Part shown: in pieces, positions 8,818-28,739 of the stretch
Numbering within the stretch: the stretch's first letter is position 1
Layout of the letters: the number at the start of each line of letters is the position of its first letter
DNA from: a virus
Virus record (IMG/VR): IMGVR_UViG_3300044956_000431
Location: 1 to 64,000 of that record
Reading direction: 5' to 3' (one strand)
Length of the DNA stretch: 64,000 nt
Position numbers and translations under genes: made by a program
Notes under the pieces: model-generated
Seen by the model: the letters and a program-made list of their open reading frames with translations, nothing else
What the model was told of the DNA's origin: nothing
Database searches by the model: none

Positions 8818-9093
8818 TTAATTGGTTTTGGTCTGTGCTGTGTATGCTTTCATGATGCCTTCACCAAACTTGGTGTAGTCAAACTTGGCGGCTTCTTGGG
8901 CGTGTTTCACAGTTTCTTGGATCACCGTGATACCTGCGTCGATGGTGGCTTTGACAGCTTTTTTAGTGTACTCAGTCTGGTTGTCGATGAACTGGTTCAG
9001 TGCGTCAGCGATTTTTTCGTCTGTGACGAAAGTCTTTACGAACTGCTTCTTACCTGTTTGTACTGCGTCGATTGTTGCGTCATATGTAAACAT
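8818..9093 (-). CDS. phasin-like (PHA granule-associated) protein
   Basis: 91-aa amphipathic Ala/Thr/Lys-rich helical protein; strong RBS; TGC-rich palindrome upstream. Confidence 0.6.
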   Translation of the reverse strand: MFTYDATIDAVQTGKKQFVKTFVTDEKIADALNQFIDNQTEYTKKAVKATIDAGITVIQETVKHAQEAAKFDYTKFGEGIMKAYTAQTKTN

Positions 9094-9152
9094 TGTTTTC
9101 TCCTTGATTAAGCTGGTTTACTAAACAAGACCCGCCCTATGCGGCATCTTGT
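9094..9152 (-). promoter_or_regulatory. structured 5' leader shared with the hsp20 leader
   Basis: ACAAGA-TGCCG-CATAGGG-CGGG-TCTTGT hairpin followed by TTAGTAAACCAGCTTAATCAAGGAGAAAACAATG. Confidence 0.65.
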
Positions 9153-9176
9153 GTGTTGCATTATTATATATGATAC

Positions 9177-9197
9177 TTATGTTGCAATGCAACATAA
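9177..9197. promoter_or_regulatory. palindromic operator, PhaR-box-like
   Basis: TTATGTTGCA-A-TGCAACATAA perfect inverted repeat upstream of the phasin gene. Confidence 0.55.
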
Positions 9198-9223
9198 ATT
9201 ATGCCCAGATTAAGGCATTTTGG

Positions 9224-10165
9224 TTATTTTAACCAAAGTGCTCTTTGTTGTTCAATTTCGCGGCGCCATGCTGTGGGATTGGTAAATCTTGTATCTAAAT
9301 CCATTAGCGCATCTTCTCTGCGTTGTCGATTGTCATCTGTGGCCATGGCACGATTGAGTTCGGTAGTGTACCAATCAACTACCGCTTTGTCAGTGCCGCG
9401 TGGCAACATAACACCCCAATGGTTCTCGTGTACATATCCCGGCAATGCTTCTCGGGCAAGACTAACAGTTTTGATTTTTTCAATACGGTTAGAACCTGTC
9501 TGTGCCACAAACTTTACTTTGCCGTCCAAGTATAAACCATAGGCAATGGGAGCAGACAATAGTGCAAAAGGTAAATGTCCGCCAGCAACATCTAATGCGG
9601 CTTGGTTTCCGCTTTTGTACGGAACAGAGATTGCTTGATGATCACGAACTCCAATTAAGTTGAACAAATGCTCAGTTGGAATCTTACCGCTGGTTCCGAT
9701 ACCGATTTTAATCTGACGACTGTCTTTGCGGAAGTATTCAACAAACTCCTTCATGTTGTTTACCAGAACGCCAGGATGTGCTATCAAAACAAAAGGTGCT
9801 TTGCCGATGCTGATGACCGGTGTATAATCGTCCAGACTATAGCGCATGGCCTGTTTATTGTAGAGTTCGCTGATGATAAATGTAGCGTCTATAGAGATTA
9901 CTTGTATGTGATGTCCATCATTGGGCATCTTAACAAACTCGTTGCTACCAAGTACAGTTTCAACTCCAGGGATGTGTTGGTTAATAAACTTTGCACGACC
10001 TTCGCGTTCTATCAAAGAAGCAGGAATACTAAAAGCACGTTCATTGCCCGACCCAGGGCCAATACCGTAGACTACTGTGATGGGTTTTGTAGGTTGCCAC
10101 TGCGCCAGTGCAAGGACTGGCAACAGTGACAATATTAGCGTAAAGAAATGTTTTTTCATGGTCAC
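9224..10165 (-). CDS. Bug/TctC tripartite tricarboxylate transporter substrate-binding protein
   Basis: Signal peptide, WQPTKPITVV, VPYKSGNQAALDVAGGH, WGVMLPRGT. Confidence 0.85.
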   Translation of the reverse strand: MTMKKHFFTLILSLLPVLALAQWQPTKPITVVYGIGPGSGNERAFSIPASLIEREGRAKFINQHIPGVETVLGSNEFVKMPNDGHHIQVISIDATFIISELYNKQAMRYSLDDYTPVISIGKAPFVLIAHPGVLVNNMKEFVEYFRKDSRQIKIGIGTSGKIPTEHLFNLIGVRDHQAISVPYKSGNQAALDVAGGHLPFALLSAPIAYGLYLDGKVKFVAQTGSNRIEKIKTVSLAREALPGYVHENHWGVMLPRGTDKAVVDWYTTELNRAMATDDNRQRREDALMDLDTRFTNPTAWRREIEQQRALWLK

Positions 10166-10180
10166 CTATAACTAAAAATA

Positions 10181-10876
10181 TTAGTTATAAGCGTTTTCCA
10201 TGAGCTGGCGACTTTCTTCAAGCATGCCTGTTTTGCTACATGTGATAGCAAAAAGATCGCGACGCATTTCGTTAATGATAGAAACCACACGTTGTTGATT
10301 CTGTTCATCACGGCAGAGCTTTTCCAACTTCAAACGACCAATGTCGCTGTGGAACTTTTCGTCTTTGGCAATTTTAGCGTAAGTGCTGGCAATAAATGGA
10401 TCTTCAATACATTGACTCATCATTGCCCAGTTACGTGCGGCACGGCCTTCGGCAACAAACTGATACAATGCCAACATTAGCTCATCTTCTTGAGCTTCGT
10501 ATTTGGCAATAAGACTTGCACCTTTTTGATGCAGTTTGTCTTTGTGTGTAGCAATAGCGGCTTCCATGTCAATCTTGTGACCCAACAAATGCTCAACTAC
10601 GTCACGCACCATGCGGAAGTGTTTGGCTTCGTCTAAGGCCTGCTTGGCCAGCATTTGAACTTCGTCTGGGTCAGCATCTTCGGGCATGTTGGCCACTTTG
10701 TTGCTGATTTCAACCATGTTCATACGCTCATTGACCATGCGACCAATAAAGTTATCCACCAACTCTTCTTGGCTTGGATTGCTGTCATAGTATGCTTTGA
10801 TTTGTAGTTCAGAAGCGCGAAAAAGTGCTTCATTGTCTTGTCCAAGTTTATGGACAAATTCTCTTGCTGATAGCAT
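10181..10876 (-). CDS. ferritin-like diiron-carboxylate protein
   Basis: E...DEAKH and E...DEKFH paired ExxH motifs. Confidence 0.75.
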   Translation of the reverse strand: MLSAREFVHKLGQDNEALFRASELQIKAYYDSNPSQEELVDNFIGRMVNERMNMVEISNKVANMPEDADPDEVQMLAKQALDEAKHFRMVRDVVEHLLGHKIDMEAAIATHKDKLHQKGASLIAKYEAQEDELMLALYQFVAEGRAARNWAMMSQCIEDPFIASTYAKIAKDEKFHSDIGRLKLEKLCRDEQNQQRVVSIINEMRRDLFAITCSKTGMLEESRQLMENAYN

Positions 10877-11010
10877 TGTGTCTGTTTCCTCTAATCAAGT
10901 TAGTTTCAACAGATGTTGAACCCTTCAACACCTGTAGTGTTGATAAGATTATTAACTTCTCCCATCAGACGCTTTTATTTAGTAAAAAAATATCCAAAGT
11001 TAAATACAGC

Positions 11011-11700
11011 ATGTTTTATCACTCTGGATACCCAAAATCCTGGAATACCCCTATACGACTCTATGCTATCTACGAGCACACTCACGACTGTTTTTTATAT
11101 GTTCATTACGATAAGAACTTGGTTAAAAAAGTCAAAAGTTTGTTGTCTAGCAAAACAATGACCTGGTTGTATGAACTGCGACTACCGGCAGATCAGTCGT
11201 TGACCCAAACCATAACCAATGCCAACGCCACGGACTATACTCTGCAGTCTGACGCCGTTAGGCCTGATCCTGTGTTCTATTTACACACGAGCACCAGGAT
11301 GGCAGCCACAATCAACTGCACAGTAAATATTCTTGGGGAAATATCTGGCCTAGAATACATGCCAAAGCTACATGATCCAGCACTGCAAACTCTACAGGAA
11401 TGGACTCAGTTTGTTGCATGGGTAATCAATGAAATACAAAACGATGAAATCTTTGATGATGAATTGATCACGCGAGCACTAATAGCAGACATCAACAACA
11501 ATAAATCGCAGATGTTAGACAATAACATGTATATGATTGCCAGTAAAATCTATAAAGTTCTTCTATTAGAACAAGACATCAAAGAAACCTGCTGTAAAAT
11601 TGGGCAGATTGCATTGCAAGCTCAGAACGCAAATAGTGTTGACGTAGGTCTTAGACCCTACAAAAACATAGCCAAACTCCGACATGATTCTGCGCCGTGA
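11011..11700 (+). CDS. hypothetical protein
   Basis: ORF with likely ATG at 11011; GTGA overlap with the PP-loop gene. Confidence 0.55.
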   Translation: MFYHSGYPKSWNTPIRLYAIYEHTHDCFLYVHYDKNLVKKVKSLLSSKTMTWLYELRLPADQSLTQTITNANATDYTLQSDAVRPDPVFYLHTSTRMAATINCTVNILGEISGLEYMPKLHDPALQTLQEWTQFVAWVINEIQNDEIFDDELITRALIADINNNKSQMLDNNMYMIASKIYKVLLLEQDIKETCCKIGQIALQAQNANSVDVGLRPYKNIAKLRHDSAP

Positions 11701-12857
11701 ATCTGTCCCTAATCCACTACCGTCATTTGGTTTCGGATCAGCTGAAGTCGTCCTGGCCCACTGCTCAACATGCCACAGATGTATGCATGGTCTCGGGCAT
11801 GGAGATCACTGCCAAGCGTAACTGGCTATTGCCTATGAGAGGCATCAACAACTTACCGTTTGAACCGTCATTGGTTCTTGATAGAATACAAAATCACATA
11901 CCAATTTCAGACTGCGAGCCTGACTACAGTACAACCTGGGCTAATGTCACGGATTCTTTGGCACCTGAACTCATTGCGCGTGCCAAGGCCAACAACAAAA
12001 AAATCATGTTGTCCTGGTCCGGTGGTGTGGATTCCACTGTTATTTTGATTGCCTTGTTGAAACATCTGTCTCACAGCGATCAAGATCTACTGACCATTGC
12101 CCTCACAAGATCTTCAATATTTGAAGCCAGTCAGATATATTTCAAATATGTGCATGGACAGTTTGCCATTGTGGACTTTGATCACTTTGTTGACAACTGC
12201 TCTCTAGACCAATATCAAAAATATATCCACGTCAACGGTGACCCTGCTGATCAACTGTGTATAGCTATAAACAGCACCAGTACGGCATTTTTGGAAGATA
12301 CCAGCTGGGGTCGACGATCTTTCAGAGATATTGGCCAGCTAGAAACTCTGCTGACTGACACATTCAATCAAGACATTGCCAAATGGCTGGCACCCAAGTT
12401 GATTGAAAACATTGAATCAACCACAGCTCCTATTGAATCCTGTTATCAAGCTGTTTGGTGGATATCATTTAACTATTTGTTCAGCGGTAGTGCCTGCGCT
12501 ACTTGGTGCCATACTTGGTGGCTCAAAGGCTTGCTGTTTGACCAATGGCTAGACCACCAGTTTTTTTGGTTTTGTGATTTGCGCTATCAACGCTGGGCCC
12601 TGGCCAACTGCGGTAGATATGATGTGCTGTTTGGGCCTAATATCAATCACTGGAAGTGGATGAGTAAACAATACATCGTAGACTACACCAAAGATCAGTT
12701 TTGGTTGAGATATAAAACAAAGATGTCGTCCAACAATAGACGTACACAACGATCCAACCCACCTTGGGTAGCATTGCATGGAAATCGTTTGCTGACATTG
12801 GAGCAAAATATTGACGAACTGAGTGAACTGTTGCCACAGTGCCTGCGTCAATCGTGA
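11697..12857 (+). CDS. PP-loop ATP pyrophosphatase (asparagine-synthetase-like, AANH superfamily)
   Basis: SWSGGVDS PP-loop, NGDPADQL motif. Confidence 0.7.
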   Translation: MNLSLIHYRHLVSDQLKSSWPTAQHATDVCMVSGMEITAKRNWLLPMRGINNLPFEPSLVLDRIQNHIPISDCEPDYSTTWANVTDSLAPELIARAKANNKKIMLSWSGGVDSTVILIALLKHLSHSDQDLLTIALTRSSIFEASQIYFKYVHGQFAIVDFDHFVDNCSLDQYQKYIHVNGDPADQLCIAINSTSTAFLEDTSWGRRSFRDIGQLETLLTDTFNQDIAKWLAPKLIENIESTTAPIESCYQAVWWISFNYLFSGSACATWCHTWWLKGLLFDQWLDHQFFWFCDLRYQRWALANCGRYDVLFGPNINHWKWMSKQYIVDYTKDQFWLRYKTKMSSNNRRTQRSNPPWVALHGNRLLTLEQNIDELSELLPQCLRQS

Positions 12858-13058
12858 CTATCTATTGACTTCTAGTGCAGATTTCCCTAGTTGTACACTG
12901 AGTGGTAGACTGGGATCTATCATGGTCATTATGACGTGATTTAACCAAGGTGGAGGCGATGCAAAAAACCCACGCCATTGTTCCGCTAACCAGATTATCA
13001 CAGACACTGCCACGGTGATTGTAAGCATCCATAAAAAATGTTTTTTTGTCAGTTTCAT
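12858..13058 (-). CDS. small membrane protein
   Basis: N-terminal hydrophobic helix. Confidence 0.45.
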   Translation of the reverse strand: MKLTKKHFLWMLTITVAVSVIIWLAEQWRGFFASPPPWLNHVIMTMIDPSLPLSVQLGKSALEVNR

Positions 13059-13126
13059 TGCTTCCTATTTAGGCTGAGGTTTTGTCAGGCAGTGTAAATA
13101 ACTAACACAACATATAGGAGAGTGTA

Positions 13127-13375
13127 ATGTTAATGTTTCTAAAAAAGTTTTTTGGTGAAAGACCCACTGTATCGCCTTGCCCTGAAGCACCATACAAAAT
13201 AGAAAATCCAGTGGTCATACCCGAAACCACTGTAGCTGCGGTACCTTTGACCACACAGCATGTGCAATCACCATCTGAAGAAGCCAAAGCTGCGGTCAAG
13301 AAAAAGCCAGCCGCTCGTAAGCCTGCTGGCAAAAAGAAACCCACTGCGCGAGCTAGAACTAAAAAATCATCCTAA
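13127..13375 (+). CDS. small protein with a Lys/Ala/Pro-rich histone-like tail
   Basis: KAAVKKKPAARKPAGKKKP; AGGAG RBS and TAAATA upstream. Confidence 0.65.
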   Translation: MLMFLKKFFGERPTVSPCPEAPYKIENPVVIPETTVAAVPLTTQHVQSPSEEAKAAVKKKPAARKPAGKKKPTARARTKKSS

Positions 13376-13646
13376 TCAATCCAATACTGTCAATGGTTGT
13401 TAGCAGGATATAGTTAGCCAACATGCCAAATGATTTCCTAGTGTAACTAGCCCAAGCATACATAGCACAACCACTAATCCAAATGGGATAAAGCACAAGC
13501 AAAGGAGGGTTGGGTACAGTGACTGCCATTGTAATAGCACAGCCAATGCTAATAGCCCAAGCCAACAACTCAACAACAAAACGAAAAGGATTAGAATGCC
13601 AATCATCTTGTATCCATTCTAGTGTGGGTCGAAATATATCAATCAT
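13359..13646 (-). CDS. small multi-pass membrane protein
   Basis: Three hydrophobic segments; start overlaps the uvsE stop. Confidence 0.65.
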   Translation of the reverse strand: MIDIFRPTLEWIQDDWHSNPFRFVVELLAWAISIGCAITMAVTVPNPPLLVLYPIWISGCAMYAWASYTRKSFGMLANYILLTTIDSIGLIRMIF

Positions 13647-14671
13647 AAAATCTCGATGGAGTTGACAAAACCATCGCGAGCAAGATTTTTGCCCTTGGCT
13701 TCGCACTGTATGTCAAACTGCGCACCAAAACTGCCCGCCCACTCGTTTACAGCTTGATTCCAATAGAAGTCTGAGTGGGCACGGAGTTGCTGTTTCTTAT
13801 GACCTCGTGCAAGAAGTCCAGCAAGATCTGGGCGAACTCGGGTATCATGACCAACAAGAATATCTTCGCGACTAACACTGTAATGCATAGCAGGGCGACA
13901 ACCACGCCAAGACTCAACCACACGCTGAACACGACTGTCTGTTGGGGAGATGTATTCTCCTGTTTTGACCCAATGATGATGAATGTCCAGCACAAGAGCC
14001 ACGTTATCAGCCACAAGCAGAGTAAGGTCTAAGCCATTTGATATCTCGTCGTTTTCAATAGTTATGAGGTTGCGAGCCTCGGGCGATAGTTTGCCAAGAC
14101 TGCGTAGGAACTTTTCAGGACCGCCTTTGCCTGACAAGTGTACATTGATCTTAAAACCATGATCATGCCATGAGCTGCCATAACCCATCCAACGAGCCAT
14201 GTCCGCATGATATTCAAACTCCAAAATAGAGCGTTCCACAATGCCATCATTTTCAGAAGCCAGTACACAAAACTGCCCTGGATGGAAACTCAGTCGTACG
14301 CCCAGCTCTCTAGCACAAGCTCCCACAGGAGCAAAGATTTTTTCAAGATGTCGCTGGATGTCGGCCTGTTGCCACCAATCGATCCAGTTGGGTTCTGTAT
14401 AGCCCTGTAGCATTTCTGAACCCAAGCGTACCATGCGGAGATGTTCGGGCAAAGCACCCACTCGTTCAACCATCATCAATGCGGCACGAGCATTGTGATT
14501 CATGATATCCCATTGACGCTGTTCAGCCTGATCTTTGTGCTCGCGGAGCCAGCGCATAGTAGTTGATCGGCCGTTGATATCACGGTCCTTGGCATTGACT
14601 TTCATGCCACCAGTTTCACTGGAGTCATTGAGCCATTTGCAACAGAAACCAAAACGAGTGTGTGTAGTCAT
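13643..14671 (-). CDS. uvsE: UV damage endonuclease (UVDE)
   Basis: RLSFHPGQF, INVH, TIENDE, LDIHHH, RAHSD, EAKGKN motifs. Confidence 0.9.
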   Translation of the reverse strand: MTTHTRFGFCCKWLNDSSETGGMKVNAKDRDINGRSTTMRWLREHKDQAEQRQWDIMNHNARAALMMVERVGALPEHLRMVRLGSEMLQGYTEPNWIDWWQQADIQRHLEKIFAPVGACARELGVRLSFHPGQFCVLASENDGIVERSILEFEYHADMARWMGYGSSWHDHGFKINVHLSGKGGPEKFLRSLGKLSPEARNLITIENDEISNGLDLTLLVADNVALVLDIHHHWVKTGEYISPTDSRVQRVVESWRGCRPAMHYSVSREDILVGHDTRVRPDLAGLLARGHKKQQLRAHSDFYWNQAVNEWAGSFGAQFDIQCEAKGKNLARDGFVNSIEIL

Positions 14672-14677
14672 AGTGTT

Positions 14678-14707
14678 ATTGTACAGCTCTTTTTGTTTTG
14701 TTGTCAA
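14678..14707 (-). promoter_or_regulatory. sigma70 promoter giving a probably leaderless uvsE mRNA
   Basis: TTGACA-18 bp-TACAAT, 6 nt before the ATG. Confidence 0.55.
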
Positions 14708-14754
14708 GATTTACCTTGTTTGGACTAAATACCTATATCAAAAGGAGTCCAAAT

Positions 14755-15060
14755 ATGGCAATTTACAGCAGATCAACCTTTAACTACAGTGCTTCGCAAG
14801 CAATCAAAGATCAGATGACAGCTGGTATTGCTCCAATCATACAGCCTTATGTCACTGCTGGAGTTTGTTTAACTGATTTTACTCATACACCAGCACTACC
14901 AGATGGCAAATATCCACCAGCCACGGGTGAATATATGGCTCAACGAAGCTGGACAGATCTGGGTCAGGCACAGACTTGTATTGCGGCAGTCAATGCTTGG
15001 TTAGATGCCAATCCTGAATGTAAAGCCTACAACTACGGCCCAACAGTGGTACAAGTTTAA
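14755..15060 (+). CDS. hypothetical late protein
   Basis: CTAAATA late promoter and AAGGAG RBS upstream of ATG 14755. Confidence 0.65.
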   Translation: MAIYSRSTFNYSASQAIKDQMTAGIAPIIQPYVTAGVCLTDFTHTPALPDGKYPPATGEYMAQRSWTDLGQAQTCIAAVNAWLDANPECKAYNYGPTVVQV

Positions 15061-15063
15061 CAG

Positions 15064-15609
15064 TTACTTCAACAACTGTATCACGCTGTCAAAACTATCT
15101 TTTGTTAGATTTGGCATCGTTATTTTTTTGGTCACAGCATTTGGATGATCTATCAGTATCCACTGTGTGTTTGGGTAAGTGCTTAGAGTGGCACGAAAGG
15201 CATTGATATAGTTCAATCGTTTGTGTGTTTCAAATTTGTCAGTGTATTCTTTATCAGACAAATCAAAACCCAATAACAACACCAAATCGTTGTGTTCGGC
15301 TACCAAATGCATAGCAATAATTTCTTCTGGCCTGTCTAGTTCACCCGGGAAGTCACCTTCATAAAGATTTACCTTGAGTGGTCTGCCTAATGCGGCATAG
15401 TTTTTTTTGGCAGTGTAAAAGTTGCAAACGGAATGAAATGCTCGTTGAATAAGTTCTTGTGCCTTGCCAGCATTGTCACACAATACATTATCGGTATTCC
15501 AGGCTCGCCAGGTTTTCCAGCTTCCCCAACTGGGTGCGATATCTTTGAGTTGTTCAGCTGTGGTATGTGTGCTGGCAAACTCTTCACCGATGACCCAACA
15601 AACTCTCAT
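15064..15609 (-). CDS. hypothetical protein (possible MptE/Maf-like Rossmann domain)
   Basis: CWVIG N-terminus, LLLGFDL motif. Confidence 0.55.
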   Translation of the reverse strand: MRVCWVIGEEFASTHTTAEQLKDIAPSWGSWKTWRAWNTDNVLCDNAGKAQELIQRAFHSVCNFYTAKKNYAALGRPLKVNLYEGDFPGELDRPEEIIAMHLVAEHNDLVLLLGFDLSDKEYTDKFETHKRLNYINAFRATLSTYPNTQWILIDHPNAVTKKITMPNLTKDSFDSVIQLLK

Positions 15610-16902
15610 TTATTTGGCTCGCAGAGCTTGCCAACGGAAAGCACCAAGACATATCCAGGCAAAAACTCCCTCAGCAGTGGTGTTGACGTTGAACACTATG
15701 TCGCCTTTGGTACCGCTGTATCCTGGAGTTTCAGCTGACCAAGATATAGTGTTACGTCCAATGCGGAGTCGTTGCACGGTGGTCAACCCATCGCCATCTA
15801 TCTCAATATGATTCTGACGATTGGTACCCAGTACCAACTGACCTTTACGACCAGTGCCAACAAAGGCTGTGTTCTTGCTGAGCTTGCCCATGCTTACATT
15901 GACTTCTTCATCCCATACACTCAGTGCTGAATCAGGATCTTCTGTGTTGATACCTACTCGTCCGCGAGTGACTGTGACAGTGTCTCGCAAACTCACGTTG
16001 CCATCTACTTGCAAACTTTCCAAGGCTCCCACTGACACAAGATTGCTGTGTTTGATGCCCGAACTTAATGCGCCACCAGACACCAATGGCCAACCGTCAA
16101 CTGAAACGTCTTGCAGATTGATACCACGTCGAATGCTTGTCAGCATGGAGTCAGTGAGCTCTTTGGCAAAATCTTGTTTGATACGATCATAAGTTATGGC
16201 ACCTACATGGTCACTGAGTTCTTGCCAGCTTTTGTTGTCCACAGCGATCTTTCCTTGCACACCGAAATTTCCTTTGACCAGTAAACTTCCGTTGAGTGTG
16301 GTGTTGCGTTCCACCGAAAGATCTTGAGTGACTGTTTCGCCTTCTATCACAACCACTCCGTCCATAACAGTGAGCTGTGTAGTAAGGGCACGATCTGCTA
16401 TGCCTTGACTGGTGAAATTTTTAACCAGTTCATTTACAAGATGATCTTTGTTTTGTAACACTGCTTGAGCCAGTGCCTGATTGAGATCCACCTCTCGCAG
16501 CCTAGATCGTACTCGATCTTCTGTGCGTTGCGCTATCAAATTTTCTATCTTGGTTACCCACGCAGGATCTATGCTGAGAGCATCAATAGTTTGTTCTACA
16601 AACTTTTCCACGCCCAGATCCACTGCTTGCCGAATACGAGGTTGATCCACATAGTTGGCTAAATCAGGTACAAATCCATTGGCAAACATTTCACCAACTC
16701 GCTGTTCCACTGTGGCTACCAGGTCGGGCAAAGTGCCAATATTGCTGAATCGTGCCGTGATACGGTCTTGAACAAATCCTACGATTTGTTTTTCAAGGTC
16801 TTCTATCCAGGCTGTTTGGCTCACTGCCTGTTGCACCTGTTGCGCTACTGCGGTTCGTATTTCTTGTTCTACCAGCTGAGCTAGTTGTTGTGCGTCAAGC
16901 AT
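15610..16902 (-). CDS. hypothetical protein: coiled-coil N-terminus and fiber-like beta-rich C-terminus
   Basis: GRVGINTEDP, GTKGDIVFN...WICLG motifs typical of fiber/virion proteins. Confidence 0.55.
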   Translation of the reverse strand: MLDAQQLAQLVEQEIRTAVAQQVQQAVSQTAWIEDLEKQIVGFVQDRITARFSNIGTLPDLVATVEQRVGEMFANGFVPDLANYVDQPRIRQAVDLGVEKFVEQTIDALSIDPAWVTKIENLIAQRTEDRVRSRLREVDLNQALAQAVLQNKDHLVNELVKNFTSQGIADRALTTQLTVMDGVVVIEGETVTQDLSVERNTTLNGSLLVKGNFGVQGKIAVDNKSWQELSDHVGAITYDRIKQDFAKELTDSMLTSIRRGINLQDVSVDGWPLVSGGALSSGIKHSNLVSVGALESLQVDGNVSLRDTVTVTRGRVGINTEDPDSALSVWDEEVNVSMGKLSKNTAFVGTGRKGQLVLGTNRQNHIEIDGDGLTTVQRLRIGRNTISWSAETPGYSGTKGDIVFNVNTTAEGVFAWICLGAFRWQALRAK

Positions 16903-19554: not shown

Positions 19555-19566
19555 TGTATCCTCCAT

Positions 19567-20889: not shown

Positions 20890-21138
20890 ATCTTTAAGTA
20901 TCACTGCACGACCAAACAGTAACAACAGTCCAGACCACATCAATAAAATAATGTCTACACTGGGTGTGCGATCACTGAGTCCAGTGAGTATGGCCAATAG
21001 CGTGGGCACTGTGGTGCAGTGGATCAAGATCACTGCCAACCAACCCAGTGTTTCAGCTGATACTGTATGCAGGCTTTCTCGGATCCATTGATTGAAGTTG
21101 GTTGTTACCCGATCAATAAAATTAAAAAATCGACTCAT
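20815..21138 (-). CDS. small membrane protein
   Basis: Three TM-like segments; coupled to the hydrolase gene. Confidence 0.65.
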   Translation of the reverse strand: MSRFFNFIDRVTTNFNQWIRESLHTVSAETLGWLAVILIHCTTVPTLLAILTGLSDRTPSVDIILLMWSGLLLLFGRAVILKDSLNIITIGAGFIVQAVLMSLILFK

Positions 21139-21740
21139 TGCTTGGATTCCTTTTTCTTGTAGAATAAATGATTACCAAACTTGGCCACGTATTGCATATT
21201 GGGCCAGGCAGGGTTTACATAATCAGCATGAAAATAAAGAGCATCTTTCAAACTGGGCAAACGAAATCCTTCTAACAGCACTTTCTTGGCCACTTCCATG
21301 CTTTCATCCCATAGTGCAGGATGCACAGGGCGCACTTTGTGTGTGGATTCGCAGTACCATGAAAACTGGCAAACTACCTTTTCGTAGATGACGTTCTTTT
21401 GGTATACCACACCGCAGACGTCTTTGCCAAAACGTCCATCCTCCACGCGGTTCATGGTTACCTGGGCCACACCTACCTTGCCTTCAAAAGGCTGATTGGC
21501 GCTTTCCCAGTAAATGTTGCGGGCCAAGCATTCCAACTGTTTGAAACGGTCCGCTGTAGATACGAAGCCTTGACGCCATAAGGCTGCTTCGTTATCAGAT
21601 GCAAGTGCATTCAGACGCAAATTTGTGACTGTGATCAAGATCGATGCAACGATCATTAGGCCGATCACACGGGGCAGACTTACAAAAAGTTTGACCATGC
21701 CAACTTGGTGCGTTTCTGACTTTGATGTTGTCTCTGTCAT
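21135..21740 (-). CDS. cell wall hydrolase, SleB/Hydrolase_2 family
   Basis: CLARNIYWES, VAQVTMNRV, CQFSW, ALYFHADYVNPAW, GNHLFY; N-terminal TM. Confidence 0.9.
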   Translation of the reverse strand: MTETTSKSETHQVGMVKLFVSLPRVIGLMIVASILITVTNLRLNALASDNEAALWRQGFVSTADRFKQLECLARNIYWESANQPFEGKVGVAQVTMNRVEDGRFGKDVCGVVYQKNVIYEKVVCQFSWYCESTHKVRPVHPALWDESMEVAKKVLLEGFRLPSLKDALYFHADYVNPAWPNMQYVAKFGNHLFYKKKESKQ

Positions 21741-21872
21741 AACTTCCTCCTTGTTTACAGGTTATTTTTACCGTAGTAATATGTACATCACATACAACCA
21801 CAGATAACTCGGTATATTTCCAAAAGAGCTATATTTACAAAAAACACTCCAAAAGAAACAAACACAAGCTAT

Positions 21873-21901
21873 ATTTTATCCTATTTTGAGATAGAAGTCA
21901 A
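21873..21901 (-). promoter_or_regulatory. sigma70-type promoter
   Basis: TTGACT-17 bp-TAAAAT. Confidence 0.55.
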
Positions 21902-22105
21902 ATTATTTTTTGCCAATACTCAATGGCAGCCAGATCAAGGTAAATATTTCAAAGGATCCCCACAGAGAATCAAAGAAGCTAAAATGGACTTTTCAAACTC
22001 GTGACCAAGGTTGGTTTTCCAATTGCGGCGGCATGCGCTGGCGGCTACTTCATTTTTCTAACATGGCAGGAGTGATGAGTTGGGTGCAGGGTCTTTTGGG
22101 CATAA

Positions 22106-22153
22106 TCACTGCTCTGGTAAGTTGTCTGTTATAATTAAGATTGTCTTTGTCAT
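22106..22153 (-). pseudogene. 5' stub of a GT4-type glycosyltransferase gene
   Basis: MTKTILIITDNLPEQ*, ATGA-coupled to rimK; resembles the GT4 N-terminus (ILIxTDxxxPQ.NGV). Confidence 0.5.
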
Positions 22154-23040
22154 TGTATTTTGAACCTTACATAGTCAACAATCCGTTGTGCCATATCTTG
22201 TTCACAAAACTTGTCCATGCCTTTGAACCCTGGACTTGAATTTGCCTCACAGATTTTGTAACCGTCTCGATCAAATAACAGATCAACTCCGGCAATTTGC
22301 AGTCCTAAAACTCTTGCTGTTTCTCTGGCCAAGTAATCAATTTCTTCGTTTATTTCAAATAATTCAGCAGAGCCGCCTTGACTGATGTTGGCACGGAAGT
22401 CACCATCAACACCTTTCCGCTTCATAGCAACAACACACTTGCCGCCAATTACCCATACACGAAGATCCGTGCCTGGTTGTGCGTCTACAAACTCTTGAAT
22501 GATAAGTGTTTTCTTTAGAGCAATGCTTGACAACAATTCCATTAGACCATCGAATATTTTGCGGCTTTCGCATAGATAAACAGTTTTGCCTCTGCTTCCA
22601 CTTGTGGCTTTTACCACACATGGGAACCCAATTTCTTTTTCAATTAAATCAACATCGACATCACCATTGACCAAAACAGTCTTGGGAATTGATAGTCCTG
22701 CTTGTGCTAGTGCTTGACTGGTAGCCAGTTTGTCTGCCACTGTTCCAACACTGGCACTGTCGTTAATTACAGGAACACTCAATCGTTCAAATTGGCGCAT
22801 CAGTGCCAAAGTGAAATAAGCACTACCCGATCCTGTCCTACTTAGAATTAAATCTGGTAAATCAATACGTTCACCTCTGTAACGTATACTTTTACCACTT
22901 CCACGACTGACAATAATATCAAAATATTTTGGTTCAAGAATTTTGGCTTCTATTTCATTACTAGAAAAGCATTCTAACAATCTTTTATTTTCGTAATTTT
23001 CTATACCGGATGCATGATGCAATATCCAAACTTTTTTCAT
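22150..23040 (-). CDS. rimK: RimK-family ATP-grasp alpha-L-glutamate ligase
   Basis: DKL, FPCVVK..GSRG, IIQEFV, DLRVWVIG, FRANISQGG, GVDLL, EANSSPG. Confidence 0.88.
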   Translation of the reverse strand: MKKVWILHHASGIENYENKRLLECFSSNEIEAKILEPKYFDIIVSRGSGKSIRYRGERIDLPDLILSRTGSGSAYFTLALMRQFERLSVPVINDSASVGTVADKLATSQALAQAGLSIPKTVLVNGDVDVDLIEKEIGFPCVVKATSGSRGKTVYLCESRKIFDGLMELLSSIALKKTLIIQEFVDAQPGTDLRVWVIGGKCVVAMKRKGVDGDFRANISQGGSAELFEINEEIDYLARETARVLGLQIAGVDLLFDRDGYKICEANSSPGFKGMDKFCEQDMAQRIVDYVRFKIQ

Positions 23041-23795
23041 TACTCATCCTTTTCTCGAGTCCAAGTTACGATTTCCCAACGGCCATTCCAATGTTCTACA
23101 AGTGCTGTCATTGACTCAACCCAGTCGCCGTCGTTCATGTAGACTACACCATCTATTTCTTTGATTTCTGCGTGATGTATGTGCCCGCAGATCACTCCAT
23201 CGAACCCACGCTTCTTACAGTATGCGGCAAGATTTTTTTCAAACTGGAAAATAAAATCTATAGATTTTTTAACTCTTGTTTTGAGATACTTGCTTAAACT
23301 CCAATAACCCAGTCCTAGTCTGTGTCTCAGAGCGTTGAATTTACTGTTTAAGTCTAGCACAAAATCATACATCTTGTCGCCCAAAAAACTCAGCCATGGG
23401 GCCAGTCTGGTAATGCCGTCAAAAAGATCTCCATGAGTAACCAGATAATGTTTTCCGTCTAAACCAATGTGCTCAGTCTGATTGAAAACTTCAATCATAC
23501 CAAAACCTATACCGTATGGAATCAATGGGCGAAGAAACTCATCATGATTGCCTGCTACATACGCAACACGAGTTCCACGCTTGGCATGCCCTAGGATACG
23601 TCTAACTACGTTGGTATGACTTTGTTTCCAACGCCACCGGTTTTGTTGAATTTTCCACGCATCGATAATGTCGCCAACAAGATAGAGTGTTTCACAGGTA
23701 TTATGTTTGAGAAAGTTATTGAGTTGCTCGGCCTTGCAGTCGCGGGTACCTAAGTGTATGTCAGAAATAAAAATAGAGCGATAAGTCTTTTGCAC
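23040..23795 (-). CDS. UDP-2,3-diacylglucosamine diphosphatase-like metallophosphoesterase (LpxH-like)
   Basis: SDIHLG, GDIID, GNHD, HGD, GHIH, NDGDWVES. Confidence 0.85.
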   Translation of the reverse strand: MQKTYRSIFISDIHLGTRDCKAEQLNNFLKHNTCETLYLVGDIIDAWKIQQNRWRWKQSHTNVVRRILGHAKRGTRVAYVAGNHDEFLRPLIPYGIGFGMIEVFNQTEHIGLDGKHYLVTHGDLFDGITRLAPWLSFLGDKMYDFVLDLNSKFNALRHRLGLGYWSLSKYLKTRVKKSIDFIFQFEKNLAAYCKKRGFDGVICGHIHHAEIKEIDGVVYMNDGDWVESMTALVEHWNGRWEIVTWTREKDE

Positions 23796-23828
23796 AGCAA
23801 TATTTAATCTCTTGTAGCATGCAGATTA

Positions 23829-24161
23829 TTACAATATTGTAATAGATTTTTTTTGATCGATTTCTTCCTTAACAGATTCAAATTGTTTTATTGATTTAAG
23901 TTGCCCTGGATCCGACTTTTTATCATAAGGAACCGGCATCGTTTGCCATTCTTCTTCGGATACATCTGAAATGACTACCAATTCATATACATGACCATCC
24001 GAACTAAAAAGATTTATTGATTCTAAACCAACAAACCCACGGGCGGCCTTTTCTATAGTTTTAGATAGTTCTAAAAGTCCTTTTTTATCTCCGACAATGT
24101 AAGCACGACCCTGGGGCTCTTTGTGTGAGTGCAGGTGTACTCTACTCAATATTGATTTCAT
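23829..24161 (-). CDS. hypothetical protein coupled to the DnaE-like gene
   Basis: ATGA overlap with the dnaE-like stop. Confidence 0.6.
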   Translation of the reverse strand: MKSILSRVHLHSHKEPQGRAYIVGDKKGLLELSKTIEKAARGFVGLESINLFSSDGHVYELVVISDVSEEEWQTMPVPYDKKSDPGQLKSIKQFESVKEEIDQKKSITIL

Positions 24162-25861
24162 TTTATATGCTCCATTTCCTCTAATTTCATACGTTTATGT
24201 TTGTAAACTGTAACATATTCTGTGTTATTTTTATACCCCAATTTTCCTGTTCCCCATACGATTGGATGATCGTGTAGACTAACAGCATGAGGTAATACCA
24301 CATCAAGATATCGTCCATTGCCGGTGCCTAATGTTATAAATGTAATATAATCTTTTGATCCGCTTTTGAATACACGATAATTGGCAACTAGCCCGCAGAA
24401 TTCTACACTACCCGGTTTTCTTATTTCAGAACACACAGGTATAAACCTATTTGACTGCCATTTTCCTGTTTGTTTTAAATCCTGCACTTCATAGCCCTCT
24501 ATGATAGAAGGTTGTACTGCTCCTGCTAATTTGGCTTCTTGCCAATAAACCCAACGAGCGTAACTGCCCTGACAATGTTTGAGAGCGGCCTGCCAAAACT
24601 TAACTGGGTTATGTGCCTTCTGATAGGCCAAAGCCCAAATCAAACGTCCTAGATTGATAGCATGAGCGCGACACAGACCAAAATGACTGAGTTCTTTGAG
24701 TGCGGCAAACACATCATCTTTTCTAGGATGGTCGCCCACTAACTGCATGAACTCAAACATTTTCTCTTCATTCTTTTTGGCAAAGGCACGACGCCACATG
24801 TCTGCTTCGTATTGATCGCAGCCTAGTATCTCTCCGATTAGATCGATAGCATCGTCTTCAAATACAATAGTATCTTCAAATTTATCTTGGCTCCAATCTT
24901 GAAAGAAACTGGCACGGCGGCGACCTTGTGTGGCCACAGGACGGATCAGTGCTGTGCATAGCACACAGTCATTTCTATTCTGCGGACGGATTGCACGGAA
25001 TAATCTCTTCATAGCAGGCGATTCTGCCTGAGTGACGCCTAAGATATCACCACGACTCAGTAATTCTGCTGTGGCTTCGTCTTCTTCAGGATAATCCATG
25101 AGATCTCGTTGTTCTATTTCCCACAACTGACTTAGGCCGCGGTTGGCCAAGATATCTATCTTGAAGTGTTCGAGATCTTCAATTTCATACTTGTCTAGTA
25201 AGATCTGATTTTCACCGTTGATAAGACTCTTAGGTACACTACGATCAAATATCAGTATACCGCCGCAGTGTTTTGAAATACAGCGTTTTTTACCTAACAA
25301 TTTATTTGCCAGTCGTTCAGCATCCGGTACGAAGCCTTTGTCTATAACTTCTTCAAGTTTGAAATTACGTTTAAGTTTTCCTTTAGCTCCTAATCTCTTG
25401 GCTGCTTCGCGACGAGCAGATTTTTCTTTATAAGTAACGTAGTTGCTTACTCTAGCACTTTGCCCAGGCCAGTGTTTGAATATACGATTCATCACTGTTT
25501 CCTGTTGCCAATGCGGAAAGTCTAAATCAATGTCTGGGAGATCATCACGTTTAGGATTCATAAAACGTGATAAGGGTATGCGTTCTTTGACTGGGTCTAC
25601 TGTAGATATACCTAGCATCCAACAGATTAAACTACTGCCAGCTGACCCTCTAGTTATGTGTGGTATGTCTTTAGTTAAATTTAATATTTCAACTACTCGT
25701 AAGAAATGTTTTGTAAAGCCTAACTTAGCAACAAGTTCCAGTTCTTCTTCTAGTCTAGTTGCATATTCCTTGCCTTCTGGTAAATCTTTAATAAATTTGC
25801 CTACAAGAGTTTCTAATTCTTTATATCTTGATTCCATAAATGCCTCATTTGCCTTGGGCAT
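24158..25861 (-). CDS. DNA polymerase III alpha-like (C-family) polymerase lacking the PHP domain
   Basis: RGSAGSSL, RFMNPKR..PDIDLDF, KHCGG, FKIDILA, ALIRP, ADMWRRA, RAHA, C-terminal OB-like region. Confidence 0.85.
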   Translation of the reverse strand: MPKANEAFMESRYKELETLVGKFIKDLPEGKEYATRLEEELELVAKLGFTKHFLRVVEILNLTKDIPHITRGSAGSSLICWMLGISTVDPVKERIPLSRFMNPKRDDLPDIDLDFPHWQQETVMNRIFKHWPGQSARVSNYVTYKEKSARREAAKRLGAKGKLKRNFKLEEVIDKGFVPDAERLANKLLGKKRCISKHCGGILIFDRSVPKSLINGENQILLDKYEIEDLEHFKIDILANRGLSQLWEIEQRDLMDYPEEDEATAELLSRGDILGVTQAESPAMKRLFRAIRPQNRNDCVLCTALIRPVATQGRRRASFFQDWSQDKFEDTIVFEDDAIDLIGEILGCDQYEADMWRRAFAKKNEEKMFEFMQLVGDHPRKDDVFAALKELSHFGLCRAHAINLGRLIWALAYQKAHNPVKFWQAALKHCQGSYARWVYWQEAKLAGAVQPSIIEGYEVQDLKQTGKWQSNRFIPVCSEIRKPGSVEFCGLVANYRVFKSGSKDYITFITLGTGNGRYLDVVLPHAVSLHDHPIVWGTGKLGYKNNTEYVTVYKHKRMKLEEMEHIK

Positions 25862-25908
25862 TTATTTATAATTGGAAATATTGAATAAGATGATATTTTG
25901 AGCAAATG

Positions 25909-25930
25909 GAAACCCGCCAGGGGCGGGTTT
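25909..25930. terminator. intrinsic terminator hairpin
   Basis: AAACCCGCC-AGG-GGCGGGTTT. Confidence 0.7.
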
Positions 25931-26068
25931 GTTTCTGTTAGACTATTTTAAGTTGTTTAAATCTGAACCAAAGTCCATTTGTTCATAGTCTGCTCCTTGA
26001 CTTCAACTACACTATTTAACTAGAGCAGACTAATCTAAAACGGCTGTTTAATCTAGATTAAAAGATGA

Positions 26069-26311
26069 TTATTTGATAGGAAGATTTTTCAGAAATTCAA
26101 TACACTCATTGAATACAATTTGTGCATCAAGTTCGCCTGCACTCAGCTGGATGTTTTCTAATCTTTGCAAGTCTGTCATGAGTTCTTGAAACTCACGCTC
26201 ATCAATGTCACCACGGGCCAAGGCATCTCGATAACTCACTGCCAGGCGTACACGATGCCTAAGTTCGCCTTCACTGTTACAAAAGTTATTAACTATGTCT
26301 ATCATACTCAT
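26069..26311 (-). CDS. hypothetical protein
   Basis: 80-aa ORF coupled to the lipoprotein gene. Confidence 0.6.
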   Translation of the reverse strand: MSMIDIVNNFCNSEGELRHRVRLAVSYRDALARGDIDEREFQELMTDLQRLENIQLSAGELDAQIVFNECIEFLKNLPIK

Positions 26312-26700
26312 GATCTAGGTCTCCTGCCACTGACATCCAACATTCTAGTTGTGGCTTCATTTATTATTTTTATTTTTGCCCGGCAGTAAAAATGACTAGG
26401 CTGTTTTTCTCGTTGATACGACATTCGAAAATCTTGTGTGACTCCGGCAAGATTTTTTGTCATGTCTGTCAGTGCATTATTACGTGGTATTGATGCACTG
26501 TAAATTTGTAACCACTGTGCAGAATGATCTATATCTTTTGCAACTGTGGCTATGTCGGCTCGCGCACAAACAGAATCATCCTGGCTCAGCAGGATGATGT
26601 CAGTGATACGAGCTTGTTCGTTGGCATCAAAATAGCTAGGAAATAATGCGCAAGACGATAGTGTGAGTGCAACACTAACTGCTGCGATTGTATTTTTCAT
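26308..26700 (-). CDS. lipoprotein
   Basis: Lipobox LSSC. Confidence 0.65.
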   Translation of the reverse strand: MKNTIAAVSVALTLSSCALFPSYFDANEQARITDIILLSQDDSVCARADIATVAKDIDHSAQWLQIYSASIPRNNALTDMTKNLAGVTQDFRMSYQREKQPSHFYCRAKIKIINEATTRMLDVSGRRPRS

Positions 26701-27049
26701 AAACGCCTTTCCAATCTGGACCTGGGCCCTGTTCTTTGTACTTAGCTATTCTATTAGAAATTTCTTGGTAGAAACTGTTTACAGTTCCACCCCAGGCATT
26801 GTGCAAATGCTCCAAGGCTTGTTCACAAAAATTCCAGTTCTTCTTACGATAGTTTTCCATGAGTTTATTGTGTAAAAGCTGTAGATTTTCTATCTTCCAG
26901 ATGTCCTCCAATGGAATCTGTTCTTTTTCCAATATACAGTAAGTATCCAATACCGGACCTTGGGGTTCAATCTGTATGCGATCCAACTCCAATACTGTGT
27001 ACTTTTCTTTCATTTCATTAGCTACTGTGTTGCCAAATATTATGTGCAT
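26675..27049 (-). CDS. hypothetical protein (TPR-like C-terminus)
   Basis: 124-aa ORF ending …PDWKGVY. Confidence 0.6.
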   Translation of the reverse strand: MHIIFGNTVANEMKEKYTVLELDRIQIEPQGPVLDTYCILEKEQIPLEDIWKIENLQLLHNKLMENYRKKNWNFCEQALEHLHNAWGGTVNSFYQEISNRIAKYKEQGPGPDWKGVYEKYNRSS

Positions 27050-27073
27050 GTTATATCCTTTTAAATATGTATC

Positions 27074-27865
27074 ATGAAACTTGCATTTGATTTAATTTCA
27101 GATCTTCACATCGAAACTTGGGAAGGATCTTTTGATTGGACCGGGCAATCTACCAGCATGATTTGTGTAGTAGCCGGAGACATCGCTAGAGACAGAGACA
27201 TCGTGATCAAAACTCTTACCCATCTGGGTCAGTGTTATCGAGCTGTGTTTTACATAGATGGCAACGATGAGCATCGTTTTTCTCTGGATGACATGGGCGA
27301 AAGTTATCGTAGTCTGGCCAAACAGATAGAACAAATACCCAATGTGACCTATCTACAGGACAATGTGTGCATTGTTGATGGCGTGGCTTTTCTTGGTACC
27401 AATGCATGGTGGACCTTTGATCTAGACTCAGAAATAGACTATGACCAAAGCAGACAATGGTTCCGTGAAAGATACCAGATCAATGAACCTGAAGTAAACA
27501 ATGTTGAAGCCATGGCATTCAATGACTATGCATACCTAGCCAAAAGTGTGGAACGACTGCAAACACACCGTGATGTAAAAAAAATAGTGCTGGTCACCCA
27601 CACTGTACCATCTCTACAGTTGATCGATCATGATCTAGAGCTTGCTGGTACCTACAGACTCAACTGTACCGGCAACAGCCACATACTCAAAGTTTTCCAA
27701 AATGACACCGAACGCAAGATCAGCACATGGTGCTTTGGACACTATCACAACGATGTTGATCATGAGATAGCAGGTGTACGATTTGTGAATAACTGTCGAG
27801 GACGTAGAGGTACTGCCTGGAGCAAATCAGTGTATTATCCCAAGCGCATAGAAGTGACCCTTTAG
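27074..27865 (+). CDS. calcineurin-like metallophosphoesterase
   Basis: SDLH, AGD, GNDEH, THTVP, FGHYH, NNCRG. Confidence 0.85.
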   Translation: MKLAFDLISDLHIETWEGSFDWTGQSTSMICVVAGDIARDRDIVIKTLTHLGQCYRAVFYIDGNDEHRFSLDDMGESYRSLAKQIEQIPNVTYLQDNVCIVDGVAFLGTNAWWTFDLDSEIDYDQSRQWFRERYQINEPEVNNVEAMAFNDYAYLAKSVERLQTHRDVKKIVLVTHTVPSLQLIDHDLELAGTYRLNCTGNSHILKVFQNDTERKISTWCFGHYHNDVDHEIAGVRFVNNCRGRRGTAWSKSVYYPKRIEVTL

Positions 27866-28176
27866 GTCGCGTCAGGCTCGAGTTTGACCTGTAAAGGATA
27901 TCCGGCGCCACGTGCATCAACTGTAACTTCGATGCCTTTTTGCTCGGCCATTTCATAAGGTAACACTGCTACAACAGCAGAACCTTCTTGGTGGATATCT
28001 ATGGTGAGTTTTTCAGCAGTTGAGGGACTGTAATCAAAATGCTCCACCAAGCTGTCAATCACAAACTCCATGCTGGTCTGATTATCATTGAGATAAATGA
28101 CTTTGAACATGGGCGGCTCTTTGATATCTTCTCTGGGTTTTATTTTAGTTTTAGTTTCGGTAGCAGTATATAACAT
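27862..28176 (-). CDS. clpS: Clp protease adaptor ClpS
   Basis: PPMFKVIYLNDNQTSMEFV...IHQEGSAVV...YEMAEQK...YPL. Confidence 0.92.
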   Translation of the reverse strand: MLYTATETKTKIKPREDIKEPPMFKVIYLNDNQTSMEFVIDSLVEHFDYSPSTAEKLTIDIHQEGSAVVAVLPYEMAEQKGIEVTVDARGAGYPLQVKLEPDAT

Positions 28177-28192
28177 CTCTTTCCCTTGCGTT

Positions 28193-28215
28193 GTGTGGGG
28201 GCGTCGCCCCCACAC
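28193..28215. terminator. GC-rich hairpin between hsp20 and clpS (terminator or 5' stabilizer)
   Basis: GTGTGGGGGCG-T-CGCCCCCACAC just after a TAAATA box. Confidence 0.5.
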
Positions 28216-28243
28216 GTATTTACGATGCTATGCTAGTATTATA

Positions 28244-28681
28244 TCACTTTGCATAACTAATAACAATACGCTTTGGCTTCATTTCTTCGGGCACAATGCG
28301 TTGCAGGTGTACACAAAGGATACCGTCTTTCATAACAGCGTCACGAACTTCTACATAGTCTGCCAGTTGAAAAGTACGCACAAACTTGCGGGCACTGATT
28401 CCACGGTGTAGATAGTTCAGTTCGCTTTCATCGTTGTTTTTCTCGCCGGTGACAACCAACTGTCCTTCGTGAAAATCCACAGACACTTCGCCTTCGGCAA
28501 ATCCTGCTACAGCGATCTGGATTTCATAGGTGTCTTCACCGGTTTTCAAGATGTTGTAGGGCGGATAGTTTTGGCTCTGTGCGGCATGGTCAAACTGATC
28601 CATGATGCGGTTGAACAAGCGATCAACGCCGATTGTGTTGCGATAGAAAGGTGTGAGATCAAAAGATGTGATTTTAGTCAT
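28244..28681 (-). CDS. small heat shock protein Hsp20 (IbpA-like)
   Basis: NYPPYNI, AVAGF, YLHRGISARKF.R.F.L. Confidence 0.93.
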   Translation of the reverse strand: MTKITSFDLTPFYRNTIGVDRLFNRIMDQFDHAAQSQNYPPYNILKTGEDTYEIQIAVAGFAEGEVSVDFHEGQLVVTGEKNNDESELNYLHRGISARKFVRTFQLADYVEVRDAVMKDGILCVHLQRIVPEEMKPKRIVISYAK

Positions 28682-28739
28682 AGTTTTCTCCTTTTAATAA
28701 GCAAGTTGACTAGTGTAGACCCGACCATCGGCATCTACA
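28682..28739 (-). promoter_or_regulatory. ROSE-like RNA thermometer leader
   Basis: 5' hairpin TGTAGA-TGCCG-ATGGT-CGGG-TCTACA, then CTTGCT able to pair with the AGGAG SD. Confidence 0.6.

Follow-up and report, generated by a model that had tools for sequence, protein, structure and literature searches.

RNA thermometers of the ROSE type are described, in the literature that we searched, from bacteria and mostly before genes for small heat shock proteins (sHsps). The short version that controls ibpA in Pseudomonas, ROSE_3, comprises a stable and conserved hairpin I, which remains folded up to 50 °C and has been suggested to stabilise the mRNA, and a hairpin II in which a U(U/C)GCU sequence lies on the Shine-Dalgarno (SD) sequence and melts with temperature (Krajewski et al. 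2013, PMC3669281). In Escherichia coli, the sHsp IbpA shows that one chaperone can control more than one mRNA (Miwa and Taguchi; Cheng et al. 2023, PMC10474464). Our literature search found no paper describing a ROSE-type element in a phage. Here we analyse two leader RNAs encoded in a 64,000-nucleotide (nt) stretch of viral DNA (positions 1 to 64,000 of IMG/VR record IMGVR_UViG_3300044956_000431; hereafter, the window). The record, of 110 kb, is part of the genome of a jumbo phage from lake water; CheckV rates it 32% complete. One leader precedes hsp20, the gene for an IbpA-type sHsp; the other precedes the gene for an all-helical protein of 91 amino acids (aa), tentatively called phasin-like. 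We consider it fairly probable that both of these phage leaders are related to, and mask the SD in the manner of, the short two-hairpin, ROSE-like thermometer ROSE_3.

The two leaders lie on the minus strand where the original prediction had placed them, each directly adjoining an ATG (Table 1), and their sequences are as it gave them. Aligned with each other, they share 46 of 60 positions over the full length (E 2e-5), and the likeness begins exactly at the hairpin, with the promoter outside. In either fold, a 7-bp outer stem and a 4-bp inner stem are separated by a bulged G, the loop measuring 3 or 5 nt; the outer stems differ by compensatory changes (ACAAGA/TCTTGT before the 91-aa gene vs TGTAGA/TCTACA before hsp20). 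Folding and alignment thus bear out the common bulged core and the compensatory swaps originally proposed. The sequence UUGCU, also part of that proposal, is confined to the hsp20 leader, the window's 91-aa leader reading CAGCU at this place. No further copy was found at E <1 when the 110-kb record was searched with an nhmmer profile made from both leaders; from the whole record, a covariance model built from phage leaders (R1) returned just two weak extra matches, at 19.7 and 14.8 bits. That the window holds two copies only, and that their predicted folding energies are unexceptional (z-scores -1.5 to -1.9), would suit a chance likeness or a functionless residue of a recent promoter-leader duplication. 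Chance is hard to maintain for a core (GATGCCG-N(3-10)-CGGGTC) that occurs twice in the window with 0.01 occurrences expected; the likeness of the leaders is real, well beyond chance.

Relatives speak to both parts of this explanation. Loci were taken from IMG/VR by protein similarity alone, so that retrieval was without bias for the RNA, and all counts given here come from these protein-anchored loci; a pattern scan of IMG/VR with the 15-base core, mostly noise and biased towards the core, served only as seed for R1. An R1 leader stands directly 5′ of the start codon at 76 of the 80 loci of 91-aa protein homologues (58-92% identity), the matches always ending 17 nt into the open reading frame (ORF), and at about 63 of the 80 loci of Hsp20 homologues (40-94% identity). 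Before these two genes the leader is kept in hundreds of environmental phage contigs. Eight of the ten pairs of hairpin I are changed on both sides, with 95-98% of cells paired (98% for hsp20) and the outer stem covarying; its covariation score was reached by none of 500 shuffles, and controls with slid partners were 37-58% paired. The bulged G of hairpin I is present in 58/58 distinct leaders of the 91-aa gene and 49/49 of hsp20. Hairpin II is mostly invariant: its own bulged G is kept in 57/58 and 47/50 distinct leaders, respectively, and its outer C:G pair becomes U:A in five distinct leaders in which the SD reads AAGGAA. Conservation and covariation, the check suggested with the original prediction, were both found in homologous phage leaders, and the claim of a conserved, covarying cis-regulatory leader common to two phage genes is borne out.

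Exactly two R1 matches, one before hsp20 and one before the 91-aa gene, were found in each of five genomes of 316-353 kb (91-100% complete); in related contigs of this size the two genes lie 13-25 kb apart. A second lineage likewise has two matches per record, 2.5-5 kb apart, before a second hsp20 type (hspB) and a small gene designated 'sm'. The two copies per ~350 kb genome would define a two-gene translational regulon of an sHsp and a phasin-like protein. Leaders within one genome are no more alike than orthologous leaders elsewhere (L124 vs L204, L122 vs L210), which implies that either copy was inherited along with the gene it precedes. Such inheritance, accompanied by compensatory changes and traceable down to 58% identity for the 91-aa protein and 40% for Hsp20, tells against a leftover of recent duplication, as does the fact that the promoters are not shared. 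Homologue conservation, covariation and the two-per-genome copy number already refute chance and duplication, to which we give next to no credence. Among 50,697 records of known phages, neither megablast of the region nor tblastn of the 91-aa protein produced a match. A contig binned in a Haliscomenobacter metagenome-assembled genome (L290) has a phage-type leader before an hsp20 gene (R1, 63.5 bits); this could reflect wrong binning of a phage contig or point to the host.

The hsp20 and 91-aa promoters differ, and the transcribed leader is their only common part, which argues that selection acts on the transcribed leader. Homologues of hsp20 show the same layout as the window, TTGACA-17-TATAAATA, the last element being identical to the T4 late promoter consensus. 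The promoter was read directly from the sequence; a consensus scanner leaves it unlisted, as it demands T at position 6 of the -10 hexamer. By sequence, hsp20 transcription is predicted to start at about 28739-28740, the foot of hairpin I, and transcription of the 91-aa gene at about 9152-9156. In homologues of the 91-aa gene a palindrome overlies the -35 region and is accompanied by TATAAT or TACAAT. This palindrome, TGTTGCA-nT-GCAACA, has its sole perfect match in the window at this promoter and is kept before nearly all homologues of the gene; its core, TGCA-T-TGCA, fits the published PhaR core YGCRNYGCR (PMC12542648). Several hsp20 lineages (L018, L043, L075, L080, L099, L248 and others) have the -10 region TATAATAAATA within an inverted repeat, e.g. 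CGTATTT...AAATACG, located 10-45 nt upstream of hairpin I, and the 'sm' promoters read CTCAT-TATAAT-ATGAG. The inverted repeats around these -10 regions may be operators. Repeated stem-loops at the mRNA 5′ end of different phage genes also recall the promoter-stem-loop (PeSL) cassettes of T4-type phages, which Arbiol and colleagues reportedly described in 2010 as many-copy, mobile and including the promoter. A mobile cassette of this type was rejected, as the leaders occur in two copies per genome, have different promoters and contain an anti-SD hairpin.

Scanned against Rfam at gathering level, the leaders match no family. Under E-value thresholds the top match of the hsp20 leader is ROSE_3 (RF02523; 31.9 bits, E 3e-5), in an alignment that covers hairpin I (consensus GAUGCCGAA.gUCGGGUC) and the C-U-Y-[G]-C-U : AGGAG hairpin. 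The window's 91-aa leader scores 19.5 bits with ROSE_3 and 20.3 bits with freshwater-2, and at 17 further loci, which include both gene classes, the leaders match ROSE_3 best (24-36.5 bits). Because the leaders match ROSE_3, the identical bulged core of the original prediction can be recognised as the conserved hairpin I of this family. In the reverse direction, R1 recovers the ibpA leaders of Pseudomonas and Stutzerimonas at 34-48 bits; it gave no match on Devosia-type genes, the closest protein relatives. A weak R1 match (15.2 bits) falls on the ibpB leader in the ibpA-ibpB intergenic region of E. coli K-12 (L281, 1881-1962), a leader that also has ACUCGCUU...AAGGAG. The comparison with ROSE thermometers made at the outset thus holds as regards likeness, with ROSE_3 the closest family and Pseudomonas ibpA leaders recovered by R1, and falls short as regards scores, all of which lie below the gathering cut-off. 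The other family encountered, freshwater-2 (RF02980), gives weak matches of 20-32.5 bits that stem from a shared AAGGAGAAAAC-AUG end and a generic hairpin. It was rejected: the model has three hairpins and a gathering score of 49.9, its hairpins fall on promoter DNA, and the leader helices are unmatched.

The likeness to ROSE_3 extends to a 5′ untranslated region (5′UTR) of ~60 nt with two hairpins that ends at the start codon, a G+C-rich hairpin I in which a G is bulged and the core reads GAUGCCG...CGGGUC, a similar AUG spacing, and the position before an IbpA-type sHsp gene; each model finds the other's members. A hairpin II with C-U-Y-[G]-C-U on AGGAG is found in the hsp20 leader and not in the window's 91-aa leader. 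The phage leaders differ in being phage-encoded, with scores below threshold; in having promoters of the TTGACA-17-TATAAATA or palindrome-plus-TATAAT kind instead of sigma-32 promoters; in an A+U-rich hairpin II without G-C clamps at its flanks, its computed stability at 37 °C being ~4 kcal/mol lower; in an extra predicted helix over the start codon, where Pseudomonas has no pairing; and in a second copy that precedes a non-sHsp gene. They probably work like ROSE_3 and are related to it, without being members by the Rfam threshold. ROSE-like thermometers are also found on non-sHsp genes of Pseudomonas aeruginosa, rhlA and lasI, where a ROSE-type anti-SD hairpin likewise operates outside heat-shock genes. 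Those are single bacterial loci, whereas here hundreds of phage contigs preserve the pairing with hsp20.

In the hsp20 leader, hairpin I aligns to hairpin I of ROSE_3, and hairpin II, with its bulged G at 28702 and one G-U pair, has the architecture of ROSE_3 hairpin II; the motif is nearly invariant among homologues. In the 91-aa leader of the window, firm pairing in hairpin II is limited to CUU:AAG, homologues having CUYGCUU. A third helix is predicted in most phage leaders by pairing of the linker just 5′ of the anti-SD with the start codon and codon 2. In hsp20 this helix III is predicted to cover the UG of AUG and codon 2 and to enclose hairpin II; in the 91-aa leader it would span the G of AUG and the next five bases, and its GUAAAC strand is retained in many homologues. 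Minimum-energy folds computed with RNAfold contain helix III in most of eight phage leaders tested, from four gene classes, and in none of three Pseudomonas leaders. Since a register shift between gene classes prevents a column-wise test, helix III was judged by comparing cognate and non-cognate duplexes: the linker pairs with its own start region at a mean of -3.5 kcal/mol, vs -0.7 with the start regions of other classes and -0.9 after shuffling. With few independent events behind it, helix III is suggestive. Hairpins I and II also share a local motif composed of a U-G pair, a bulged G and a C:G pair (28731-28733 with 28720-28721; 28701-28703 with 28690-28691), which, repeated in both hairpins, could be a recognition element.

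Table 1. Positions of the leaders, their predicted structures, promoters and neighbouring genes in the window
Feature	Position	Strand	Description	Basis
91-aa gene leader	9094-9152	minus	abuts ATG at 9093-9091 of 91-aa ORF (8818-9093)	
hsp20 leader	28682-28739	minus	abuts ATG at 28681-28679 of Hsp20 ORF (28244-28681)	
hsp20 hairpin I	28714-28739	minus	7-bp outer stem, bulged G at 28732, inner CCGA/UCGG, loop UGG	folding
hsp20 hairpin II	28688-28705	minus	anti-SD CUU[G]CUU 28705-28699 : SD AAGGAG 28693-28688, loop AUUAA	folding
hsp20 proposed helix III	28675-28712	minus	UAGUCA 28712-28707 : UGACUA 28680-28675	minimum-energy fold, longer RNA
91-aa leader hairpin I	9125-9152	minus	7-bp outer stem, bulged G at 9145, inner CCGC/GCGG, loop AUAGG	folding
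91-aa leader degenerate hairpin II	9100-9116	minus	CCAGCUU 9116-9110 opposite SD AAGGAG 9105-9100	
91-aa proposed helix III	9086-9121	minus	GUAAAC 9121-9116 : GUUUAC 9091-9086	minimum-energy fold
Helix III pairs, hsp20			linker UAGUCA / start region UGACUA	
Helix III pairs, hsp20			linker GUCAU / start region AUGAC	
Helix III pairs, 91-aa gene			linker GUAAAC / start region GUUUAC	
Helix III pairs, second hsp20 type (hspB)			linker UAACC / start region GGUUA	
Helix III pairs, 'sm' gene			linker UUAGUC / start region GACUGA	
hsp20 promoter	28746-28774	minus	TTGACA 28774-28769, 17 nt, TATAAA 28751-28746, extends to TATAAATA	direct reading
91-aa gene promoter region	9163-9197	minus	palindrome over -35 region (9177-9197), core TGTTGCA-nT-GCAACA 9180-9194; TATAAT 9168-9163	
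hsp20 gene	28244-28681	minus	IbpA-type sHsp, 145 aa	Pfam HSP20 E 1e-17
91-aa gene	8818-9093	minus	all-helical protein, phasin-like (weak call)	
Proteostasis cluster around hsp20	27862-30402	minus		
ClpX	29203-30402	minus		
Ribosomal protein S21	28989-29210	minus		
72-aa ORF	28771-28989	minus		
ClpS adaptor	27862-28215	minus		
TctC-family ORF	9224-10165	minus	directly upstream of 91-aa gene	
Terminator-like hairpin	9201-9218		after TctC-family ORF	

The computed stability of the isolated hairpin II in the window's hsp20 leader is -2.2 kcal/mol at 20 °C and weakens to -0.3 at 37 °C. The thermometers of P. stutzeri, P. guariconensis and E. coli yield -4.1 to -4.6 kcal/mol at 37 °C. Being weaker than these validated thermometers, the hsp20 hairpin would switch at a lower temperature, which fits a lake; alternatively, the switch would need helix III or a protein. 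For the window's 91-aa leader the corresponding values are -1.1 and 0 kcal/mol, and in a close relative (L121), which has CUCGCU intact, hairpin II of this leader reaches -3.5 kcal/mol at 37 °C. The replacement of CUCGCU by CCAGCU suggests that the window's 91-aa leader is probably leaky and nearly open: this copy has lost part of its anti-SD and would probably stay mostly open.

We postulate that transcription starts at the foot of hairpin I and that this stable, G+C-rich hairpin with its invariant bulged G stays closed, protecting the RNA or aiding its folding. The anti-SD CUYGCUU would pair imperfectly with AAGGAG, by way of a bulged G and one G-U pair, and in most phage versions the linker 5′ of it would also pair with the start codon and codon 2. 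In the cold, or in unstressed cells, this weak A+U-rich structure would hide the ribosome binding site; warming would open it and translation would begin. A second layer may come from the IbpA-like Hsp20, which would bind the structured leader and be drawn off it by unfolded protein.

Several results weigh against a phage-borne thermometer of the ROSE_3 type. The gathering score of ROSE_3, 43 bits, is reached by no leader, the best homologue scoring 36.5, and U(U/C)GCU is absent from the window's own 91-aa leader (CCAGCU), though present in its homologues. Given the low variation of hairpin II, the support for it is mostly conservation of a sort that the SD would enforce by itself. Some lineages lack helix III, the AUGACAAGA class being one example. 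The promoters are sigma-70-like or, with TATAAATA, T4-late-like, and not of the sigma-32 kind. In four freshwater RNA runs, contigs of relatives (85-95%) span the hsp20 coding region and leader, with none upstream of hairpin I, but as metatranscriptome contigs without a DNA control they give a weak hint of the transcript 5′ end. Finally, SD accessibility predicted by nearest-neighbour partition functions is nearly flat from 5 to 42 °C; as a temperature scan, this calculation is uninformative.

Weak predicted masking of the SD would also be expected if the leader were a constitutive cassette, in which a 5′-terminal hairpin guards the mRNA from decay that depends on the 5′ end and a strong SD sustains abundant translation without any switch. 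Hairpin I does lie at the predicted 5′ end, a stabilising role was proposed for hairpin I of the Pseudomonas ibpA mRNA by Krajewski et al. (PMC3669281), and the 91-aa protein family is highly abundant in metagenomes. A generic cassette, however, could do without a ROSE-type CUYGCU or a helix III that covers the start codon; the anti-SD, bulged G included, is conserved and changes together with the SD, and only two of several hundred genes per genome use the leader. We regard a constitutive cassette as very unlikely.

More weight attaches to the chaperone itself. In E. coli, IbpA represses translation of ibpA and ibpB via thermometer-type 5′UTRs (bioRxiv 10.1101/2020.04.20.050740), and its activity needs R93, an aromatic residue at position 34, a positive charge at 97/98 and the IXI oligomerisation motif (PMC10474464). 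The window's Hsp20 scores 137 bits with the NCBIfam IbpA model, below the model cut-off. Aligned with E. coli IbpA and IbpB, it has R93, Y34, R97 and IVI as its IXI motif, with T at position 98; the full residue set for self-repression is thus present, and the protein may bind RNA. Phage Hsp20s in general retain R93, Y34, R/K97 and IXI, and IbpB is without R93. The shared RNA-binding factor of the original prediction is plausible, since residues required by E. coli IbpA for binding its own 5′UTR are retained in the phage Hsp20. The leader could then be mainly an sHsp operator, repressed by oligomers of phage Hsp20 or host IbpA and freed when protein unfolding or aggregating during infection titrates them, with temperature secondary. 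Such an operator would account for a hairpin I whose sequence and invariant bulged G are conserved far beyond the need of a stabilising stem, for the local Y-G-C / G-G motif common to both hairpins, and for the presence of the element on only two genes per genome. Against it, R93 is common among proteobacterial IbpAs and hence weak evidence, and position 98 is non-cationic in the phage proteins. We hold it doubtful, if worth a hearing, that the leader is mainly such an operator; this can coexist with a thermometer. The resemblance to the E. coli system, in which IbpA acts on the ibpA, ibpB and rpoH 5′UTRs (PMC10474464), lies in an IbpA-type sHsp with R93, Y34 and IXI beside thermometer-type leaders; the differences are that the present system is phage-encoded and that its second target would be a phasin-like gene.

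Identification of the 91-aa protein as a phasin is weakly but consistently supported. The family counts ~890 close metagenomic homologues with no Pfam domain on record. The window's protein matches neither Phasin_2 at E <=1 nor any phasin in NCBIfam, while 9 of 22 homologues match Phasin_2 below threshold (best E 1.2e-4); family-model support for the phasin assignment of the original prediction thus comes from the homologues. AlphaFold2 models the window's protein as three helices (predicted local distance difference test score, pLDDT, 85), and among named Atlas clusters the nearest are Phasin_2, PHB_acc and PHA synthase subunit E, all <0.9; a fold search of the PDB with the model gave nothing below E 0.68. 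The PhaR-like core of the promoter palindrome is a further pointer to a phasin. The original prediction had also called the two genes unrelated. Functionally this is not so: IbpA is itself a protein of polyhydroxyalkanoate (PHA) granules, binds them and has been called phasin-like (PMC10646324), so that the pairing of hsp20 with a phasin-like gene makes functional sense.

In the window, hsp20 lies in a proteostasis cluster with genes for ClpX, ribosomal protein S21, a 72-aa ORF and the ClpS adaptor (Table 1). Directly upstream of the 91-aa gene is an ORF with a TctC-family domain (tripartite tricarboxylate transporter receptor), followed by a terminator-like hairpin. The record further encodes a DNA polymerase, a DnaB-like helicase, a ligase, a ribonucleotide reductase and a tail spike. 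The nearest bacterial relatives of Hsp20 (Devosia, Pseudomonas) are <=50% identical, and no bacterial donor or host could be named from them. Contigs of the second lineage (L034, L055, L059, L078, L081, L072, L098) encode the hspB protein, which starts MVRNT.., and 'sm', an acidic protein of 85-92 aa with the motif LSLQDIA..QIID..S.RGGFEG. Distant tblastn relatives of 'sm' occur in the jumbo phages Atu_ph07, PA5oct and SCTP-2, while Pfam has no family for it. Homology between 'sm' and the 91-aa family was considered and rejected (hhalign probability 0.06%).

A wider scheme, unlikely as a whole, would join these elements: the phage IbpA-like chaperone would bind its own leader and that of the phasin-like gene, a PhaR-type operator sensing host polyhydroxybutyrate (PHB) would gate transcription of the phasin-like gene, and the other lineage would have independently wired another small protein. 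If this were true, giant freshwater phages would run their own regulon for proteostasis and storage granules, its translation following the load of unfolded protein, and temperature, during infection. What is new in the leaders themselves is a ROSE-type element that is phage-encoded, of lower predicted stability than validated mesophilic versions and with a predicted additional helix over the start codon, and its reuse on a second conserved gene, in exactly two copies per ~350 kb genome. For Rfam, they supply a clear sub-threshold clade with which ROSE_3 could be widened. They offer a compact natural system for asking how phages sense temperature or proteotoxic load, what role hairpin I and its invariant bulged G play, and whether IbpA-type chaperones regulate RNAs beyond their own operon.

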